Part shown: in pieces, positions 5,689-58,149 of the stretch
Position numbering within the stretch: position 1 is the stretch's first letter
How the letters are laid out: each line of letters starts with the position of its first letter
NCBI RefSeq assembly: GCF_054482525.1
Contig: NZ_CM137006.1
Reading direction: 5' to 3' (one strand)
Length of the DNA: 64,000 nt
The notes under the pieces: model-generated
The model's input: only the letters and a program-made list of their open reading frames with translations
Told to the model about the DNA's origin: nothing
Databases searched by the model: none
Translations under genes and position numbers: made by a program

Positions 5689-6189
5689 ATGCACGAGAAT
5701 CAACAACCACAAACCGAGGCTTTTGAGCTGAGTGCGGCAGAGCGTGAAGCGATTGAGCACGAAATGCACCACTACGAAGACCCGCGTGCGGCGTCCATTG
5801 AAGCGCTGAAAATCGTTCAGAAGCAGCGTGGCTGGGTGCCGGATGGCGCGATCCACGCGATCGCCGATGTGCTGGGTATTCCGGCGAGCGACGTCGAAGG
5901 TGTGGCAACGTTTTATAGCCAGATCTTCCGCCAGCCGGTTGGCCGCCATGTGATCCGTTATTGCGACAGCGTGGTCTGTCATATCAACGGTTACCAGGGT
6001 ATTCAGGCGGCGCTCGAGAAAAAGCTGAACATCAAACCAGGGCAAACGACATTTGACGGTCGCTTTACGCTGCTGCCAACTTGCTGCCTGGGGAACTGTG
6101 ATAAAGGGCCAAACATGATGATCGATGAGGACACTCACGCGCATCTGACCCCGGAAGCGATCCCTGAACTGCTGGAGCGGTATAAATGA
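5689..6189 (+). CDS. nuoE: NADH:quinone oxidoreductase subunit E
   Basis: 166 aa, 2Fe-2S thioredoxin-like subunit; position in operon. Confidence 0.95.
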
Positions 6190-7523
6190 AAAACATTATC
6201 CGTACTCCCGAAACGCATCCGCTGACCTGGCGTCTGCGCGATGACAAACAGCCAGTGTGGCTGGACGAATACCGCAGCAAAAACGGTTACGAAGGGGCGC
6301 GTAAGGCGCTGACCGGGCTGTCTCCGGACGAAATTGTTAATCAGGTAAAAGACGCTGGTCTGAAAGGGCGCGGCGGCGCGGGCTTTTCGACTGGCCTGAA
6401 ATGGAGCCTGATGCCGAAAGACGAATCCATGAACATCCGTTACCTGCTATGTAACGCCGATGAAATGGAGCCGGGCACCTATAAAGACCGCCTGCTGATG
6501 GAGCAACTGCCGCACCTGCTGGTGGAAGGTATGCTCATCTCCGCGTTTGCCCTGAAAGCGTACCGTGGCTACATCTTCCTGCGTGGCGAGTATATCGAAG
6601 CGGCAGTGAATCTGCGCCGTGCCATTGCCGAAGCCACCGAAGCGGGTCTGCTTGGCAAAAACATTATGGGAACAGGTTTCGACTTCGAATTGTTCGTCCA
6701 TACCGGGGCAGGGCGCTACATCTGCGGTGAAGAAACAGCGTTAATCAACTCCCTGGAAGGGCGTCGCGCTAACCCACGCTCGAAGCCTCCATTCCCGGCA
6801 ACCTCCGGTGCATGGGGCAAACCGACCTGTGTCAATAACGTCGAAACCCTGTGTAACGTTCCGGCGATCCTTGCTAACGGCGTGGAGTGGTATCAGAACA
6901 TCTCGAAAAGTAAAGATGCTGGCACCAAGCTGATGGGCTTCTCCGGTCGGGTGAAAAATCCGGGCCTGTGGGAACTGCCGTTCGGCACCACCGCACGCGA
7001 GATCCTCGAAGATTACGCCGGTGGTATGCGTGACGGTCTGAAATTCAAAGCCTGGCAGCCAGGCGGTGCTGGTACTGACTTCCTGACTGAAGCGCACCTT
7101 GACCTGCCGATGGAATTCGAAAGTATCGGTAAAGCGGGAAGCCGTCTGGGTACGGCGCTGGCGATGGCGGTTGACCATGAGATCAACATGGTGTCGCTGG
7201 TGCGTAACCTGGAAGAGTTTTTCGCCCGTGAGTCCTGCGGCTGGTGTACGCCGTGCCGCGACGGTCTGCCGTGGAGCGTGAAAATTCTGCGTGCGCTGGA
7301 GCGTGGCGAAGGTCAGCCGGGCGATATCGAAACACTTGAGCAACTGTGTCGATTCTTAGGCCCGGGTAAAACTTTCTGTGCCCACGCACCTGGTGCAGTG
7401 GAGCCGTTACAGAGCGCCATCAAATATTTCCGCGAAGAATTTGAGGCGGGAATCAAACAGCCGTTCAGCAATACCCATTTGATTAATGGGATTCAGCCGA
7501 ACCTGCTGAAAGAGCGCTGGTAA
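6186..7523 (+). CDS. nuoF: NADH:quinone oxidoreductase subunit F (NADH-binding, FMN)
   Basis: 445 aa; GxGxxG-type nucleotide-binding motif (GRGGAGF); 4-nt overlap with nuoE. Confidence 0.95.
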
Positions 7524-7575: not shown

Positions 7576-10302
7576 ATGGCTACAATTCATGTAGACGGCA
7601 AAGAATACGAGGTCAACGGAGCGGACAACCTGCTGGAAGCTTGTCTGTCTCTGGGCCTTGATATTCCTTACTTTTGCTGGCATCCGGCGCTGGGAAGCGT
7701 CGGTGCTTGCCGCCAGTGTGCGGTGAAGCAATACCAAAACGCGGAAGACACGCGTGGTCGCCTGGTGATGTCCTGTATGACACCGGCTTCCGATGGCACC
7801 TTTATTTCCATTGACGACGAAGAAGCGAAACAGTTCCGTGAAAGTGTGGTCGAGTGGTTAATGACCAACCACCCGCACGACTGTCCGGTATGTGAAGAGG
7901 GCGGTAACTGCCATCTTCAGGATATGACTGTGATGACCGGACACAGCTTCCGTCGCTACCGTTTCACCAAACGTACCCACCGTAATCAGGATTTGGGGCC
8001 ATTCATCTCTCACGAAATGAACCGCTGCATCGCCTGCTACCGCTGCGTGCGTTACTACAAAGATTACGCTGACGGCACGGACCTGGGCGTTTACGGTGCG
8101 CACGACAACGTCTACTTCGGTCGCCCGGAAGACGGCACGCTGGAAAGCGAATTTTCCGGTAATCTGGTCGAGATTTGCCCGACCGGCGTATTCACCGACA
8201 AAACGCACTCCGAGCGTTACAACCGTAAATGGGATATGCAGTTTGCGCCGAGCATCTGCCAGCAATGTTCCATCGGCTGTAACATCAGCCCCGGCGAGCG
8301 TTACGGCGAACTGCGTCGTATCGAAAACCGTTACAACGGTACGGTAAACCACTACTTCCTCTGCGACCGTGGTCGTTTCGGTTACGGCTACGTCAACCTG
8401 AAAGATCGTCCGCGTCAGCCAGTACAGCGTCGTGGCGATGATTTCATTACCCTCAATGCCGAACAGGCAATGCAGGGCGCAGCAGATATTCTGCGTCAGT
8501 CGAAGAAAGTGATCGGTATTGGTTCTCCGCGTGCCAGCGTGGAAAGCAACTTTGCGCTGCGTGAGCTGGTGGGCGAAGAAAACTTCTACACCGGTATCGC
8601 TCACGGTGAGCAGGAACGTCTGCAACTGGCGCTGAAAGTACTGCGTGAAGGCGGCATTTATACGCCGGCACTGCGCGAAATCGAATCTTACGATGCGGTA
8701 CTGGTGCTGGGCGAAGACGTTACCCAGACCGGCGCGCGCGTCGCGCTGGCAGTTCGTCAGGCGGTGAAAGGTAAAGCACGCGAAATGGCGGCAGCACAGA
8801 AAGTGGCTGACTGGCAGATTGCGGCAATCCTCAACATCGGTCAACGTGCTAAGCATCCGCTGTTTGTTACCAACGTTGATGACACCCGTCTGGATGATAT
8901 CGCGGCGTGGACTTACCGCGCACCGGTTGAAGATCAGGCGCGTTTAGGTTTTGCCATCGCCCATGCGCTGGACAACTCAGCACCAGCGGTTGACGGTATC
9001 GAACCTGAGCTGCAAAGCAAAATCGACGTCATCGTGCAGGCTCTGGCGGGGGCGAAGAAACCGTTGATTATCTCCGGGACGAACGCCGGCAGCGCTGAAG
9101 TTATTCAGGCGGCGGCTAACGTCGCAAAAGCCCTGAAAGGTCGCGGCGCTGACGTCGGTATCACCATGATTGCCCGTTCCGTCAACAGCATGGGGCTGGG
9201 CATTATGGGCGGTGGATCGCTTGAAGAAGCGTTAACCGAACTGGAAACCGGACGCGCCGACGCGGTGGTGGTGCTGGAAAACGATCTGCATCGTCACGCT
9301 TCCGCTACCCGCGTGAATGCTGCGCTGGCGAAAGCGCCGCTGGTGATGGTGGTTGACCATCAACGCACAGCGATTATGGAAAACGCCCATCTGGTACTTT
9401 CCGCCGCCAGCTTTGCTGAAAGCGACGGTACGGTAATTAATAATGAAGGTCGCGCCCAACGTTTCTTCCAGGTTTACGATCCGGCTTATTACGACAGCAA
9501 AACTGTCATGCTGGAAAGCTGGCGCTGGTTACACTCGCTGCACAGCACCCTGCTGAGCCGTGAAGTGGACTGGACGCAGCTCGACCACGTGATTGACGCT
9601 GTTGTGGCGAAAATCCCGGAACTGGCAGGTATCAAAGATGCTGCGCCGGATGCGACATTCCGTATTCGTGGGCAGAAACTGGCCCGTGAGCCGCACCGTT
9701 ACAGCGGTCGTACCGCCATGCGCGCCAACATCAGCGTTCATGAGCCGCGTCAGCCGCAGGATATTGACACCATGTTCACCTTCTCGATGGAAGGTAACAA
9801 CCAGCCGACCGCGCACCGTTCGCAAGTGCCGTTTGCCTGGGCACCGGGCTGGAACTCCCCGCAGGCGTGGAACAAATTCCAGGACGAAGTGGGCGGCAAA
9901 CTGCGCTTTGGCGATCCAGGTGTGCGTCTGTTTGAAACCAGCGAAAACGGTCTGGATTACTTCACCAGCGTACCGGCACGCTTCCAGCCGCAGGCAGGGA
10001 AATGGCGTATCGCGCCGTACTACCACCTGTTTGGCAGCGATGAATTGTCACAGCGTGCTCCGGTTTTCCAGAGCCGTATGCCACAGCCGTACATCAAACT
10101 TAACCCAGCGGATGCCGCGAAGTTGGGTGTGAACGCGGGCACTCGCGTCTCCTTTAGCTACGATGGCAACACGGTCACGCTGCCGGTTGAAATCGCCGAA
10201 GGGCTGACGGCAGGGCAGGTTGGCTTGCCGATGGGTATGTCCGGCATTGCTCCGGTGCTGGCTGGCGCGCATCTTGAGGATCTCAAGGAGGCACAACAAT
10301 GA
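7576..10302 (+). CDS. nuoG: NADH:quinone oxidoreductase subunit G
   Basis: ORF opens at 7570 (MLM...); the third ATG at 7576 gives [11 protein letters not shown] and 908 aa; multiple Cys clusters. Confidence 0.93.
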
Positions 10303-51442: not shown

Positions 51443-52801
51443 ATGTTGAGTATTTTTAAACCAGCGCCACACAAAGCGCGCTTACCTGCCGCGGAGATCG
51501 ATCCGACTTATCGTCGATTGCGCTGGCAAATTTTCCTGGGGATATTCTTTGGTTATGCTGCTTACTATTTGGTTCGTAAGAACTTTGCCCTCGCTATGCC
51601 TTATCTGGTCGAGCAGGGATTCTCACGCGGTGATTTAGGTTTTGCCCTTTCGGGGATCTCGATTGCTTATGGATTTTCGAAATTCATCATGGGCTCGGTG
51701 TCGGATCGCTCGAATCCGCGCGTATTCCTGCCCGCAGGTTTGATTCTGGCGGCGGCGGTGATGCTTTTTATGGGCTTTGTGCCGTGGGCGACGTCGAGCA
51801 TTGCGGTGATGTTTGTGCTGCTGTTCCTCTGCGGTTGGTTCCAGGGGATGGGATGGCCGCCGTGCGGTCGTACTATGGTGCACTGGTGGTCGCAGAAAGA
51901 ACGTGGCGGCATTGTGTCAGTGTGGAACTGTGCGCATAACGTCGGTGGTGGTATTCCGCCGCTGCTGTTCCTGCTGGGGATGGCCTGGTTCAATGACTGG
52001 CACGCGGCGCTCTATATGCCCGCTTTCTGCGCCATTCTGGTGGCACTGTTCGCCTTTGCGATGATGCGCGATACCCCGCAATCCTGTGGCCTGCCGCCGA
52101 TCGAAGAGTACAAAAATGATTATCCGGACGACTATAACGAAAAAGCGGAACAGGAGCTGACGGCGAAGCAAATCTTCATGCAGTACGTGCTGCCGAACAA
52201 ACTGCTGTGGTACATCGCTATCGCCAACGTGTTCGTTTATCTGCTGCGTTACGGCATCCTCGACTGGTCACCGACTTATCTGAAAGAGGTGAAACACTTC
52301 GCGCTGGATAAATCCTCCTGGGCCTACTTCTTCTATGAGTATGCGGGCATTCCGGGCACCCTGCTGTGCGGCTGGATGTCGGATAAAGTCTTCCGTGGCA
52401 ACCGTGGGGCCACCGGCGTCTTCTTTATGACACTGGTGACCATCGCGACTATCGTTTACTGGATGAACCCGGCAGGTAACCCAACCGTAGATATGATTTG
52501 TATGATTGTTATCGGCTTCCTGATCTACGGCCCTGTGATGCTGATCGGTCTGCATGCGCTGGAACTGGCACCGAAAAAAGCGGCAGGTACGGCAGCGGGC
52601 TTTACCGGGCTGTTTGGTTACCTGGGCGGTTCGGTGGCGGCGAGCGCGATTGTTGGCTACACAGTGGACTTCTTCGGCTGGGATGGCGGCTTTATGGTAA
52701 TGATTGGCGGCAGCATTCTGGCGGTTATCTTGTTGATTGTTGTGATGATTGGCGAAAAACGTCGCCATCAGGAATTACTGCAAAAACGCAACGGAGGCTA
52801 A
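51443..52801 (+). CDS. glpT: Glycerol-3-phosphate:phosphate antiporter GlpT (MFS)
   Basis: 452 aa, [31 protein letters not shown]. Confidence 0.95.
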
Positions 52802-52805
52802 TGGC

Positions 52806-53882
52806 ATGAAATTGACGCTGAAAAACCTTAGCATGGCGATCATGATGAGTGGAATGATCATGGGAAGCAGTGCAATGGCGGCGGACAGCAACGAAAAAAT
52901 AGTCATCGCCCATCGCGGTGCCAGTGGATATTTGCCGGAGCATACGCTGCCAGCAAAAGCGATGGCGTATGCGCAGGGAGCGGATTATCTGGAACAAGAT
53001 TTGGTGATGACCAAAGACGACCATCTGGTTGTCCTGCATGACCATTATCTCGATCGTGTTACTGATGTTGCCGATCGTTTCCCGGATCGGGCGCGCAAAG
53101 ACGGTCGTTACTACGCGATAGATTTCACGCTCGATGAAATTAAGTCACTGAAATTTACCGAAGGTTTCGATATTGAAAATGGTAAGAAAGTACAGACTTA
53201 TCCGGGGCGTTTCCCGATGGGTAAATCTGACTTCCGGGTACACACTTTCGAGGAAGAGATTGAATTTGTTCAGGGGTTAAATCACTCTACCGGGAAAAAT
53301 ATCGGTATCTATCCAGAAATTAAAGCGCCGTGGTTCCATCATCAGGAAGGGAAGGATATTGCGGCTAAAACGCTGGAAGTGCTGAAGAAATATGGTTACA
53401 GCGGTAAGGACGACAAAGTTTATTTGCAATGTTTTGATGCCGATGAACTGAAGCGTATTAAGAATGAGCTGGAACCTAAAATGGGCATGGACCTCAATCT
53501 GGTACAGCTGATTGCCTATACCGACTGGAACGAAACTCAGCAGAAACAGCCGGACGGAAGCTGGGTTAATTACAACTACGACTGGATGTTTAAGCCGGGG
53601 GCCATGAAACAGGTGGCGGAATATGCTGATGGTATTGGTCCGGATTATCATATGTTGATTGAGGAGACATCGCAGCCAGGTAATATCAAACTCACTGGCA
53701 TGGTGCAAGATGCTCAGCAGAATAAACTGGTAGTGCATCCTTACACCGTGCGGTCAGATAAGCTGCCTGAATACACTACTGATGTGAATCAGTTATATGA
53801 TGCTCTGTATAACAAAGCGGGTGTAAATGGGCTGTTTACTGATTTCCCTGATAAGGCAGTAAAATTCCTTAATAAAGAGTAA
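52806..53882 (+). CDS. glpQ: Periplasmic glycerophosphodiester phosphodiesterase GlpQ
   Basis: ATG at 52806 gives MKLTLKNLSMAIMMSGMIMGSSAMA signal peptide, 358 aa, HRGASGYLPEHT motif. Confidence 0.93.
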   Translation: MKLTLKNLSMAIMMSGMIMGSSAMAADSNEKIVIAHRGASGYLPEHTLPAKAMAYAQGADYLEQDLVMTKDDHLVVLHDHYLDRVTDVADRFPDRARKDGRYYAIDFTLDEIKSLKFTEGFDIENGKKVQTYPGRFPMGKSDFRVHTFEEEIEFVQGLNHSTGKNIGIYPEIKAPWFHHQEGKDIAAKTLEVLKKYGYSGKDDKVYLQCFDADELKRIKNELEPKMGMDLNLVQLIAYTDWNETQQKQPDGSWVNYNYDWMFKPGAMKQVAEYADGIGPDYHMLIEETSQPGNIKLTGMVQDAQQNKLVVHPYTVRSDKLPEYTTDVNQLYDALYNKAGVNGLFTDFPDKAVKFLNKE

Positions 53883-54102
53883 TGCTATTGCAGGATGGCG
53901 TTCATGCGCCATCCTCTGCTAAAACGAAATAATGCTACTACCGGTTATTCTTTTCATTAACCGGTGCATCCTGTTAAAAAAGATGCCAACATATTTGCGT
54001 AAAACTCATTCGTTAAGAAAGCTAACACTGGGCATTGTTATTCCTTAAACAGTATGAATTGGGTTCAATAATAAATTGTATTGCAGTTTATACTGTAAAG
54101 TA

Positions 54103-55173
54103 TTATTCGCATTTCGGAAAAGTAAAGAAAATATTAATGTATCTTATTAATTTATTATATTGTTCTTGAGTGAATGCTATTTGCACACCTTCAGGATAAT
54201 ATTCACCAGTAATAACCAGTTGTCCATTGCTGTGTTGTACCATTAAACCTTTTTTTTCCTTTGGATCTTCAAACTTAGAATTATCAAACGTGAAGATGTT
54301 ATTTTCCTGTTTTGAGTAAGCAAAGAAATCTCGTGTATAGCTGAAACTATCATTTATTAATGGTGCTAACTTTTTGTCGGCGATATCGATAAGCTCACCA
54401 CTTAATTTATTGATGTATTTCATTTGGTTCAATTTTTTCTGCGCTTGTACAATTTGCTTGTAGGTATTTTTAATTTCCTTAGAAGAATTCTTGAATTTAT
54501 CATAGCGTTCCACGGAGGATGCGTATTTGTACCATTCTGTATTTTTCTCAGAATGTAGTAGCAGGTCTGTATATTTTTTTTGATCGCTGTAAAGTTGACT
54601 TTTAATACTTTCCTCACTGCTGGTTTTATAAGGTTTATCAGAGCTGTTTATTTTTGAAATGTCTTTTTCTGTCGGTGACTGGACCGTGTTGTGGATATTT
54701 TCTTTTATAACATGTTCATTGATGATGTTAATTGCAGTTTCATATTCATTTAAGTTTATTGTTCTTTGTGAAATAAACCCTTCTTTGCTTTCGACACTCA
54801 AAATACCTTCGTTGTTTTCACCTCGGGTAAAGGTAAGGGTATAGGGTTCATAATCCGCTGCAAATTCATTTTTATACGTTATGACATGTTCGACAAAATG
54901 TCTTATTGGTACGAAACTATAACTGTGAACGTCAATTTTTTGGGTCTTGATACTATCAATTGCATCTGAGGCTTTCGTGAAAAAAGTCAATAAATTAGCT
55001 ATGCTGTCTGCTGAGGTTGATAACCCGTATCTACTTTGAGATATTTTTAGAAACTCATCGCAAAAAATCTCAAGTTTCGCGGTTTGTTGTGATTCTTTGT
55101 AAACTTCTGCTGGTTGCAATTTATTATTTTGTAAAATATTACCTCGAGATAAGTGAATAGATGTATTTGGCAT
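54103..55173 (-). CDS. Hypothetical protein, about 356 aa, low GC, no recognisable domain (orphan accessory gene)
   Basis: Long uninterrupted ORF in a clearly AT-rich segment; ATG at 55171..55173 preceded by AAGGAA at 7-8 nt spacing (the ORF track starts 12 codons earlier on a TTG); Lys/Ser/Asn/Glu-rich, no signal peptide or TM segments; I recall no K-12 gene at this position. Confidence 0.65.
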   Translation of the reverse strand: MPNTSIHLSRGNILQNNKLQPAEVYKESQQTAKLEIFCDEFLKISQSRYGLSTSADSIANLLTFFTKASDAIDSIKTQKIDVHSYSFVPIRHFVEHVITYKNEFAADYEPYTLTFTRGENNEGILSVESKEGFISQRTINLNEYETAINIINEHVIKENIHNTVQSPTEKDISKINSSDKPYKTSSEESIKSQLYSDQKKYTDLLLHSEKNTEWYKYASSVERYDKFKNSSKEIKNTYKQIVQAQKKLNQMKYINKLSGELIDIADKKLAPLINDSFSYTRDFFAYSKQENNIFTFDNSKFEDPKEKKGLMVQHSNGQLVITGEYYPEGVQIAFTQEQYNKLIRYINIFFTFPKCE

Positions 55174-55638
55174 AAATGATTCCTTGTATTGTGAGTTAAC
55201 AAGATACAATTTAATCTTTGCAGAATATATTCACTATCAAATTTAGCTCATTTTATTACGAAGACCTTTACGCATGTTAGAAAGTATCATTATTGTTAAT
55301 AAATACGGTAATAAGTAACAAACAGATATTGATAACTTCCCTGACAAGTTATTAAGTATCCCACTTGAAGATTGAGAATGGCTCCAGAGTAAACTGTGTA
55401 CTGTTCGCCGGAGTGTCATTACTCTCAACAATCGGTTTTGACAGTGAGTCGGGCGCTTCATACCGGTTTCTACCTGGAGTCATTGTCACTTCTCCCAACT
55501 GGATAAATATATATCGCCAATTCACAAAGTGGGCCAAAATCAGGTGAAAACGAATTATTACGCCAGGTAAAGGCTATAGTACAACTAAGTGTGGCGAATC
55601 AGGCAGTCTTGCATTTGTCATCAATCTCATGTCTTACA

Positions 55639-55845
55639 TCAAATTTTTCCACTCACCACGAGTTGTTCCGTACACGTTTGTAGTAAAAACAGTGGACTGC
55701 CTTCTACCGGCTTTTCTTTAGCCAGCAACGAAATCTGTCGATAGAAGGTTGGTTCGAGAGGAACGGAACACAATTCACCTGCAATGGTTTTCAGCGTCAA
55801 CTCTGGTAATAAGGCGATGCCTAATCCCTGTCGAATAAAATTCAT
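55639..55845 (-). pseudogene. yfaH: YfaH, a LysR-family regulator fragment (C-terminal effector-domain remnant)
   Basis: 68-aa ORF resembling a LysR substrate-binding-domain piece (GLGIALLPELTLK); no helix-turn-helix domain. Confidence 0.65.
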
Positions 55846-56060
55846 CGCTGTATCCGCCTGATTAAATTCACATTTTATCTGCTGGGTGCACTATTAGTGG
55901 TAGTGGCTGGTGGAGTCTATGCGCTGCAAATGAAGGGTAAAAGCGGTGTCGCGCTAGTAGTGGCAAAAGAAATTCATTAATACGACACGTTTCATTAAGA
56001 TTTTTCGCAGGTAACCACCTATAGTCATTGTCGTAAATAAAAAATGACAGGCGATAGGGT

Positions 56061-56711
56061 ATGGCAGTTTCAGCAAAGCACGACGAATTTAATCACTGGT
56101 GGGCAACAGAGGGCGACTGGGTTGAAGAGCCTAACTATCGCCGTAATGGTATGAGCGGGGTGCAATGCGTCGAGCGCAACGGCAAAAAGCTATATGTAAA
56201 GCGCATGACGCATCATCTGTTTCATTCCGTACGTTATCCGTTCGGCCGACCAACGATTGTCCGTGAGGTTGCGGTAATTAAAGAACTGGAACGGGCTGGT
56301 GTCATCGTGCCGAAGATCGTTTTTGGTGAAGCGGTGAAAATTGAGGGGGAATGGCGCGCGTTGCTGGTGACTGAAGATATGGCGGGGTTCATCAGCATTG
56401 CTGACTGGTATGCCCAGCATGCAGTAACGCCCTATTCTGACGAAGTACGGCAAGCCATGTTGAAAGCAGTGGCGCTGGCGTTTAAGAAAATGCATAGCGT
56501 TAATCGTCAGCATGGCTGTTGCTATGTTCGCCATATCTATGTGAAAACAGAAGGTAAGGTAGAAGCTGGATTTCTTGATCTGGAGAAAAGTCGTCGCCGC
56601 TTGCGTCGCGATAAAGCGATTAATCATGACTTCCGCCAGCTGGAAAAATATCTGGAGCCGATCCCCAAAGCGGACTGGGAGCAGGTGAAAGCGTATTACT
56701 ACGCCATGTAA
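56061..56711 (+). CDS. inaA: Acid-inducible Kdo/WaaP-family kinase-like protein InaA
   Basis: 216 aa, MAVSAKHDEFNHWWATEGDWVEEPNYRRNGMSGVQ. Confidence 0.9.
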   Translation: MAVSAKHDEFNHWWATEGDWVEEPNYRRNGMSGVQCVERNGKKLYVKRMTHHLFHSVRYPFGRPTIVREVAVIKELERAGVIVPKIVFGEAVKIEGEWRALLVTEDMAGFISIADWYAQHAVTPYSDEVRQAMLKAVALAFKKMHSVNRQHGCCYVRHIYVKTEGKVEAGFLDLEKSRRRLRRDKAINHDFRQLEKYLEPIPKADWEQVKAYYYAM

Positions 56712-56764
56712 TCGTTGTAGGCCAGATAATACGCGTAAGCGTCGTATCTGGCACTACAACCAAT

Positions 56765-57019
56765 TCACATCTCGATTTCAATATCGCCTTTTGCCCGGCA
56801 ACAACAGGGCAAAATTTCCCCCGGCTGAATAAAGGCTAACGGTTCGGCAATCCAGTCCACCTGGCCTGCAACAAGGCGCGTGCGACAGGAACCGCAGTAA
56901 CCTTCGCGGCACTGGTACTCAACCGCCACATTGTGGGATTCCAGCGCCGCCAGAAGGGAAGGGTGTTCATCCTGGCACAGCAGTTGTGTGCCAGTGATGC
57001 GCAGGGTAATGCGAGCCAT
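56765..57019 (-). CDS. yfaE: 2Fe-2S ferredoxin YfaE (maintenance of the NrdB diferric-tyrosyl cofactor)
   Basis: 84 aa with CxxGxCGxC-type motif (CREGYCGSC); immediately downstream of nrdB. Confidence 0.9.
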   Translation of the reverse strand: MARITLRITGTQLLCQDEHPSLLAALESHNVAVEYQCREGYCGSCRTRLVAGQVDWIAEPLAFIQPGEILPCCCRAKGDIEIEM

Positions 57020-58149
57020 CAGAGCTGGAAGTTACTCAAATCGTCGGTGTCCACTTCCGAGTCAATCTGCCCGACCAGATAAGAACTGACTTCCACTTCC
57101 TGCGGAGCAACCTGCACGTTATCAGACACCAGCCAGGTATTGATCCACGGGATCGGGTTGGAGCGAGTCTGGAACGGCAGATCCAAACCGACTGCCTGCA
57201 TGCGGATATTGGTGATATATTCAACGTACTGGCAGAGAATGTCTTTATTCAGACCAATCATCGAACCGTCACGGAACAGATAATCCGCCCAGTCTTTCTC
57301 TTGCTGTGCCGCCTGGACAAACAGGTCATAGCATTCCTGCTTACATTCTTCGGCAATTTCCGCCATCTCCGGATCATCCGCGCCGCTGCGCAGCAGATTC
57401 AGCATATGCTGAGTACCGGTCAGGTGCAGGGCTTCATCGCGGGCAATCAGGCGAATAATTTTGGCGTTACCTTCCATCAGTTCGCGTTCTGCAAAGGCAA
57501 AGGAACAAGCAAAGCTGACGTAGAAGCGGATCGCTTCCAGCGCGTTAACGCTCATCAGGCAGAGATACAGTTTTTTCTTCAGCTCGCGCAGGCTAACGGT
57601 TACGGTTTTACCGTTAACGGTGTGGGTACCTTCGCCCAGCAGATGCCAGTAGCTGGTCATTTCGATCAGCTCATCGTAATAACTGGAGATCCCTTCCGCA
57701 CGTTTCTGGATCTGCTCGTTGGTGACGATATCATCAAACACAACGGACGGATCGTTAACGATATTACGAATGATATGGGTATAAGAACGAGAGTGAATGG
57801 TTTCTGAGAACGCCCAGGTTTCGACCCAGGTTTCCAGTTCAGGGATCGAGATCAGCGGCAGCAGTGCCACGTTCGGGCTGCGACCCTGAATGGAGTCCAG
57901 CAACGTCTGATATTTCAGGTTGCTGATAAAGATGTGTTTTTCGTGTTCAGGCAGTGCCTGGTAATCGATACGGTCACGAGAAACGTCAACTTCTTCCGGA
58001 CGCCAGAAGAAAGAGAGCTGCTTTTCGATCAGCTTTTCGAAGATGTCATATTTTTGCTGATCGTAGCGAGCCACGTTGACCGGCTGACCAAAGAACATCG
58101 GTTCTTTCAGCTGATCATTTTTCGTCTGTGAAAAGGTGGTATATGCCAT
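57019..58149 (-). CDS. nrdB: Ribonucleotide reductase class Ia beta subunit NrdB
   Basis: ATG at 58147..58149 gives [40 protein letters not shown] (376 aa). Confidence 0.95.

Follow-up and report, generated by a model that had tools for sequence, protein, structure and literature searches.

The interval between glpQ and inaA of Escherichia coli holds, directly beyond the short LysR-type fragment known as yfaH, an open frame on the plus strand that reads like the end of a membrane protein, and the question is whether this frame is a small gene of its own, regulatory DNA of inaA or what is left of a larger gene. The sequence considered here is the segment 55846-56060 of a 64,000-nucleotide stretch of contig NZ_CM137006.1 (assembly GCF_054482525.1), the whole of which is called the window in the following and in which inaA is followed by yfaE, nrdB, and nrdA (the other features are collected in Table 1). 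The part of the window from 55500 to 56200 is 100% identical to E. coli PCN033 (NZ_CP006632.1). A first-pass annotation of the same DNA had described an open frame without any start codon, interpreted as the C-terminal tail of a membrane protein, in a decayed and rearranged hotspot between inaA and glpQ.

On the plus strand the frame runs uninterrupted from 55825 to its TAA stop at 55978-55980 and its translation is SLSNKIHRCIRLIKFTFYLLGALLVVVAGGVYALQMKGKSGVALVVAKEIH; the peptide starting with LLGALL begins at 55879 and not, with a trivial offset, at 55882 as first given. The absence of a start codon holds for the upstream portion, in which no ATG, GTG, or TTG occurs in this frame from 55825 up to 55897, and thus none upstream of the deletion junction described below, but it does not hold further on, where GTG 55897, GTG 55903, and ATG 55930 are in frame and the program-made ORF list contains a 27-aa GTG ORF at 55897..55980. 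These three codons are internal Val and Met codons of a parent protein of the Major Facilitator Superfamily (MFS). In fact, the transporter-derived part of the open frame comprises only the sequence from 55876 onward, and the preceding 17 codons (55825-55875) are antisense to the yfaH remnant and open by chance.

The origin of the downstream part is evident from the comparison with the ST69 genome, in which the 105 nucleotides 55876..55980 are found without a single difference (105/105) at the same position as the 3' end of an MFS gene (8156..8260 of the ST69 locus, L004), so that this frame is not a chance ORF. The proposed C-terminal tail of a membrane protein is supported at the protein level, since the translated frame aligns by BLASTP to residues 363-396 of the intact transporter with 34/34 identities (E=1e-19) and corresponds to the last helix and tail of a 396-aa MFS_1 protein. 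The parent protein (7070-8257 of L004) matches Pfam PF07690 MFS_1 with E=1.8e-59 and 201.8 bits against a cut-off of 33.4, and its residues 361-379 are the last hydrophobic segment, with a Kyte-Doolittle value of 2.31 in a 19-residue scan; the basic tail that follows, QMKGKSGVALVVAKEIH, retains its length and pattern in nearly all of the orthologues that were compared. The 34-aa remnant peptide has no Pfam domain match, and the full 12-helix two-bundle MFS domain is absent from the window, where codons 1-362 are deleted and the last hydrophobic segment and the tail remain. Judged by its sequence, the segment is therefore a fragment of an MFS_1 family member and not a functional member.

The intact E. 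coli transporters WP_000660225.1 and WP_063084519.1 have identical residues 363-396 and lie in the same position and orientation upstream of inaA; the window retains 9% of this gene and has lost 91%, whereas the complete gene of 1191 bp encodes an MFS_1 domain and multiple hydrophobic helices from its own start codon and shares a divergent promoter with the LysR gene. Databases name the intact transporter only as "MFS transporter" or with a COG title of the "arabinose efflux permease" type, and the NCBIfam models nearest to it, searched for an indication of the substrate, gave only sub-threshold scores (PRK05122, 111.7 bits vs a cut-off of 374; PRK12382, 86 vs 364).

Table 1. Features of the glpQ-inaA interval in the window (positions of the 64,000-nucleotide stretch).
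Feature	Position	Strand	Description or basis
glpQ	52749..53882	+	ORF list
Orphan AT-rich ORF, 368 aa	54103..55209	-	ORF list
LysR-family regulator remnant (yfaH)	55639..55875	-	C-terminal ~78 codons of a 292-aa protein
Upstream part of the open frame, SLSNKIHRCIRLIKFTF	55825..55875	+	Antisense of the yfaH remnant, without ATG/GTG/TTG; MFS homology begins only at 55874-55876
Deletion junction, one surviving copy of the direct repeat TTTATCTG	55874..55881		Split alignment to the intact allele
MFS transporter remnant, codons 363-396, YLLGALLVVVAGGVYALQMKGKSGVALVVAKEIH, and TAA stop	55876..55980	+	Last transmembrane helix and cytoplasmic tail
inaA upstream region, 80 bp, with -10-like TATAGT at 56020-56025	55981..56060	+	Alignment of six structural forms
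inaA, lipopolysaccharide kinase InaA, 216 aa	56061..56711	+	ORF list; annotated in PCN033, K-12, ST69, and W409

The intact ancestor that the first-pass annotation had proposed to look for is thus a gene for a 396-aa MFS_1 transporter beside a gene for a 292-aa LysR-type regulator. In ST69 (NZ_CP102488.1) and W409 an intact 879-bp LysR gene and the 1191-bp MFS gene lie between glpQ and inaA, divergently oriented and separated by 151 bp in ST69 and 164 bp in W409, and the MFS gene stops 80 bp before inaA; an intact pair at the same position is also present in O157:H7 SS17. The intact regulator of ST69 contains both the HTH_1 (5e-18) and the LysR_substrate (9e-37) domains, and its residues 226-292 match NCBIfam PRK09729, the 68-aa yfaH model (E=4e-43). 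In the window the 68-aa ATG ORF at 55639..55845 on the minus strand is the yfaH of K-12, and the yfaH remnant is 97.4% identical to the 3' part of the ST69 LysR gene. The HTH half of the regulator, the shared intergenic region, and the 5' end of the target gene are all deleted in the window, including the native MFS start and the 151-bp divergent intergenic region, which both fall inside a deleted segment of 1880 bp; the full divergent arrangement of LysR gene and target is found only in the intact allele. The intact system would probably have been an ordinary case of an MFS permease or efflux gene under the control of a LysR regulator transcribed in the opposite direction.

The limits of the lost segment are marked by a short direct repeat. 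Window positions 55500-55886 align to 5901-6286 of the ST69 locus (L004) and positions 55874-56200 to 8154-8480, with a 13-bp overlap between the two alignments. Intact alleles have two copies of the repeat TTTATCTG at a distance of 1880 bp, one in the LysR gene and one in the MFS gene; at the left site the sequence is TTTTATCTG(T/C)GG, within the codons P-Q-I-K of the opposite strand, and at the right site it is ATTTATCTGCTGGG, within the MFS codons I-Y-L-L-G. Both sites have the exact core TTTATCTG of 8 bp (9 bp in some alleles) in common, and up to 11-12 of the 13 bp match overall. With the segment between the two sites the LysR gene has lost its first ~214-215 codons and the MFS gene its codons 1-362, and the promoter region that they shared is gone as well. 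Deletions at short direct repeats that generate bacterial pseudogenes likewise start from two flanking repeats and leave one copy at the junction, and in comparison with typical examples there is nothing unusual here, a core of 8 exact bp (9 bp in some alleles) being in the normal range.

The same junction is common to the window, K-12, PCN033, HH45, and six further genomes. The identity of the remnant with the intact ST69 allele prompted the consideration of a recurrent, independent deletion in the lineage of the window, which is rejected on account of shared variants adjacent to the junction: at positions 55841, 55843, 55858, 55871, and 55873 the window agrees with each of the seven further remnant alleles in the comparison and differs from ST69 (at 55857 there is likewise a difference from ST69, but the remnant alleles vary). 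The window is ST69-like apart from these junction-adjacent variants. Because the variants on the left of the junction are common to remnant alleles, unlike ST69, the pattern points to one deletion event that would have been followed by recombination.

On these grounds the frame beside yfaH is very probably a non-functional gene remnant, generated by an 1880-bp deletion between direct repeats in an ancestral LysR-MFS pair. The ancestor would have been a divergent pair between glpQ and inaA, encoding a LysR-type regulator and a 12-helix MFS transporter, and a single deletion between the two copies of TTTATCTG would have joined the LysR gene at about codon 214-215 to the MFS gene at codon 362/363. 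The direct-repeat signature suggests microhomology-mediated illegitimate recombination or replication slippage as the mechanism. Such a deletion would have cost the regulator its DNA-binding half and the transporter gene 91% of its length, together with the promoter region shared by both, so that the yfaH fragment and the MFS fragment would both be products of one event; the survivors would be the C-terminal ~78 codons of the LysR gene on the minus strand and the last 34 codons of the MFS gene on the plus strand, meeting at 55874-55881. The remnant, which is presumably not expressed, probably persists as neutral DNA beside the inaA promoter, and its frame may still be open because 105 bp are too short to have gathered a stop or a frameshift.

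That the pair itself is old is indicated by its occurrence outside E. coli. In a scan of one genome per species the MFS transporter was found at 81-97% identity in Escherichia sp. including E. whittamii, in Salmonella enterica subsp. arizonae and diarizonae, in several Citrobacter and Kluyvera species, and in Klebsiella spallanzanii, Pluralibacter, Superficieibacter, and Phytobacter. The order glpT-glpQ-LysR(-)-MFS(+)-yfaE(-)-nrdB(-), traced by tblastn with the E. coli neighbours, is kept, and synteny of the pair extends to more than 20 enterobacterial species besides E. coli. Judged by this synteny across genera the LysR-MFS pair is ancestral, which makes the state of the window and of E. coli a loss; the form of the locus without any remnant, considered as an ancestral empty site, is rejected on the same cross-genus synteny. 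The position of inaA itself is lineage-specific: apart from Escherichia, a single Pseudocitrobacter MAG has inaA in the slot between MFS and yfaE, and in genera such as Salmonella, Citrobacter, and Kluyvera this slot consists of just the ~8-10 bp that separate the end of the MFS gene from yfaE.

A different origin would be a horizontally acquired LysR-MFS islet present in some strains, of which the window would carry the scar of an imprecise excision. The distribution within E. coli is indeed patchy, an AT-rich orphan gene is inserted next door, and there are two strongly diverged classes of intact alleles, with the LysR part of W409 only 77.6% identical. However, this proposal is largely refuted by synteny, since numerous genera of the Enterobacteriaceae have the pair at the same place between glpQ and yfaE, with an MFS identity of 81-97%; moreover, the GC content of the remnants (0.43-0.47) is near that of the neighbouring glpQ (0.46), and no integrase, tRNA, or terminal repeats are involved at a junction that is a plain 8-bp microhomology. 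An excised islet is therefore extremely unlikely.

The divergence of the intact alleles is an observation in its own right. The LysR gene of W409 (L001, 3874..4752) has 77.6% DNA identity to the window remnant 55639..55875, the 3' end of its MFS gene is 99.4% identical to the window, and another intact allele is 85% identical overall; the difference between the LysR part and the MFS 3' end of W409 indicates recombination mosaicism across the locus. At a larger distance, 55%-identical relatives of the enterobacterial MFS transporter occur in the Firmicutes Desulfosporosinus sp. FKB and Bacillus sp. EB600, one of them with a LysR-like neighbour, which hints at an old inter-phylum transfer of the MFS gene or of the pair.

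The frequency of the different states was determined in 5426 complete E. coli genomes. At least 1216 of them (~22%) contain at least 80% of the LysR-MFS pair; the contiguous deleted form is present at a coverage of at least 80% in 3109, and ~3150 (~58%) match only the two remnants; the remaining state, without any match to the LysR-MFS pair, is found in 1060 (~20%). The remnant is dispensable, since about 20% of the genomes have lost everything. In the remnant-free FDAARGOS_1287, in particular, 202 bp separate glpQ from inaA and the MFS stop codon is the point at which BLAST homology to the intact allele sets in, and in HH45 a further deletion has removed most of the yfaH remnant. The locus thus exists in intact, 1880-bp deleted, further deleted, and fully lost states, each with or without the orphan gene, which is present in PCN033 and ST69 and absent from K-12 and W409. 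The picture of a decayed hotspot between inaA and glpQ agrees with these several states of decay, but "rearranged" is too strong a word, the changes seen at the locus being deletions and one insertion, with no inversions or translocations.

The AT-rich segment around the orphan ORF (53883..55638), between glpQ and the yfaH remnant, has a GC content of 0.32-0.34 vs 0.51 for the window and is probably a separate, horizontally acquired insertion; in PCN033 and ST69 the orphan ORF is annotated by PGAP as "hypothetical protein, frameshifted". A 3.5-kb contig labelled "MAG: Collinsella sp." (JAIJJM010000334.1) carries the E. coli orphan gene at 98% and the LysR gene at 100% amino acid identity, and is almost certainly E. 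coli contamination of the MAG.

The remnant could have been co-opted for a later use, for instance as a small single-helix membrane protein that would consist of the last helix and the basic tail of the transporter, translated from GTG 55897 (27 aa) or ATG 55930 (16 aa). The GTG-initiated 27-aa ORF does exist, it is strongly hydrophobic like many small membrane proteins of E. coli, and the frame is unbroken in all 10 remnant alleles sampled, although an open frame of 105 bp is expected even without selection. Neither of the internal GTG and ATG starts is preceded by a convincing Shine-Dalgarno-like sequence, and the native promoter is deleted; a strict scan for sigma-70 promoters and terminators over 55600-56120, which is no guide to a promoter that depends on an activator, found no promoter-like or terminator-like sites. 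A search against Rfam at a permissive threshold (53800-57100) found no family in the remnant. In the inaA-yfaE intergenic region a sub-threshold match to naRNA4 was recorded at 56720..56787 on the minus strand (27.3 bits vs a gathering threshold of 59.5, E=0.046), which is probably a REP-type palindromic element.

The variation among remnant alleles bears on the same point. These differ at up to 8 of the 105 nucleotides and the changes include A->K, A->T, L->P, V->A, and V->I; the radical replacements A->K and L->P argue against a co-opted protein. Some of the changes, for example V->I and A->T, are also polymorphic in intact orthologues, and relaxed constraint is therefore neither shown nor excluded; the remnant of the window does not differ at any position from the intact ST69 allele, so that no decay is visible in this strain. 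In addition, K-12 RefSeq lists nearby small proteins found by ribosome profiling, yoaM in the nrdA-nrdB gap (K-12, L003, 1351..1386) and ypaB beside nrdA (W409, L001, 10923..11066), and nothing at the remnant, so that small-ORF curation has covered this region without calling it. The strongest case against function is the complete absence of the sequence from a fifth of E. coli genomes (1060/5426), and a co-opted small membrane protein is accordingly held to be extremely unlikely.

The second possible use concerns inaA. This gene is a member of the mar/sox/rob regulon and has an activator-dependent promoter, which most likely lies in 55981-56060. That segment is the only part of 55846-56060 conserved in every E. 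coli form, the remnant-free one included, and is matched in 5425 of the 5426 genomes; no usable coordinates of the inaA promoter or transcription start were found in the literature. The stretch with the remnant could be kept as regulatory DNA of inaA, containing for example upstream promoter elements or activator sites, and its coding appearance would be only historical. The distance from the remnant to the inaA start is 80 bp, the -10-like TATAGT lies within these 80 bp, sites near the -35 region and upstream of it are plausible for an activator-dependent promoter, and in a MAFFT alignment the remnant-free form is weakly similar (~17/22 nt) to the terminal ~20 bp of the remnant. Significant homology in remnant-free genomes begins, however, only at the MFS stop codon, and at least 55876-55959 is therefore unneeded for inaA in ~20% of the genomes. 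The marbox consensus AYNGCACNNWNNRYYAAAYN, searched with up to two mismatches, had no match in 55800-56060 and 13 matches in the whole window vs 16.8 expected, no commoner than chance; the best candidate by eye, at 55982-56001, would have three mismatches and is not significant. A regulatory role of the stretch is thus unlikely and, being compatible with a pseudogene origin, is not a true alternative to it. Either the translation of a membrane micropeptide of 16-27 aa or, alternatively, a rewiring of inaA expression by the loss of LysR-controlled read-through from the transporter gene is very unlikely; if inaA had been rewired, the proportions of 22% intact, 58% remnant, and 20% absent would reflect selection and not drift.

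The identification of the frame as a degraded transporter end agrees with the annotation of several genomes. In PCN033 the RefSeq (PGAP) record has a plus-strand pseudogene at the positions equivalent to 55876..55980 ("hypothetical protein; incomplete; missing N-terminus") and a LysR substrate-binding fragment pseudogene on the minus strand at window 55639..55887; the same 105-bp pseudogene, likewise without its N-terminus, is annotated by PGAP in all eight remnant-carrying genomes examined (PCN033 and seven others). The pseudogene fragment is therefore ordinary and already known through PGAP annotation. In K-12 MG1655, in contrast, the RefSeq annotation has yfaH (b2238) alone, with no feature from there to inaA, although the equivalent of the remnant is present on the minus strand of NC_000913.3 at 2349552-2349656; the comparison with K-12 thus revealed a homologous stretch that bears no annotation of any kind, promoter DNA included. 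The LysR-derived yfaH pseudogene of K-12, which has a name and a locus tag, and the unannotated MFS fragment are both C-terminal fragments without a native start, and yfaH, 30 bp away on the opposite strand, would have arisen from the same 1880-bp deletion as the second half of its scar.

Beyond a tidy annotation the importance of these results is slight. They supply a pseudogene annotation that is missing in K-12 and a simple presence/absence marker for the locus, and they advise caution, in that a hydrophobic open frame such as this one is not to be taken for a new small-protein gene. For the biology of E. coli they mean that yfaH and the adjacent unannotated 105 bp of K-12 would be the two halves of one deletion scar, by which an ancestral LysR-regulated MFS transporter was probably destroyed, a transporter that about one fifth of E. 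coli, O157:H7 among them, and many other Enterobacteriaceae still possess in intact form.
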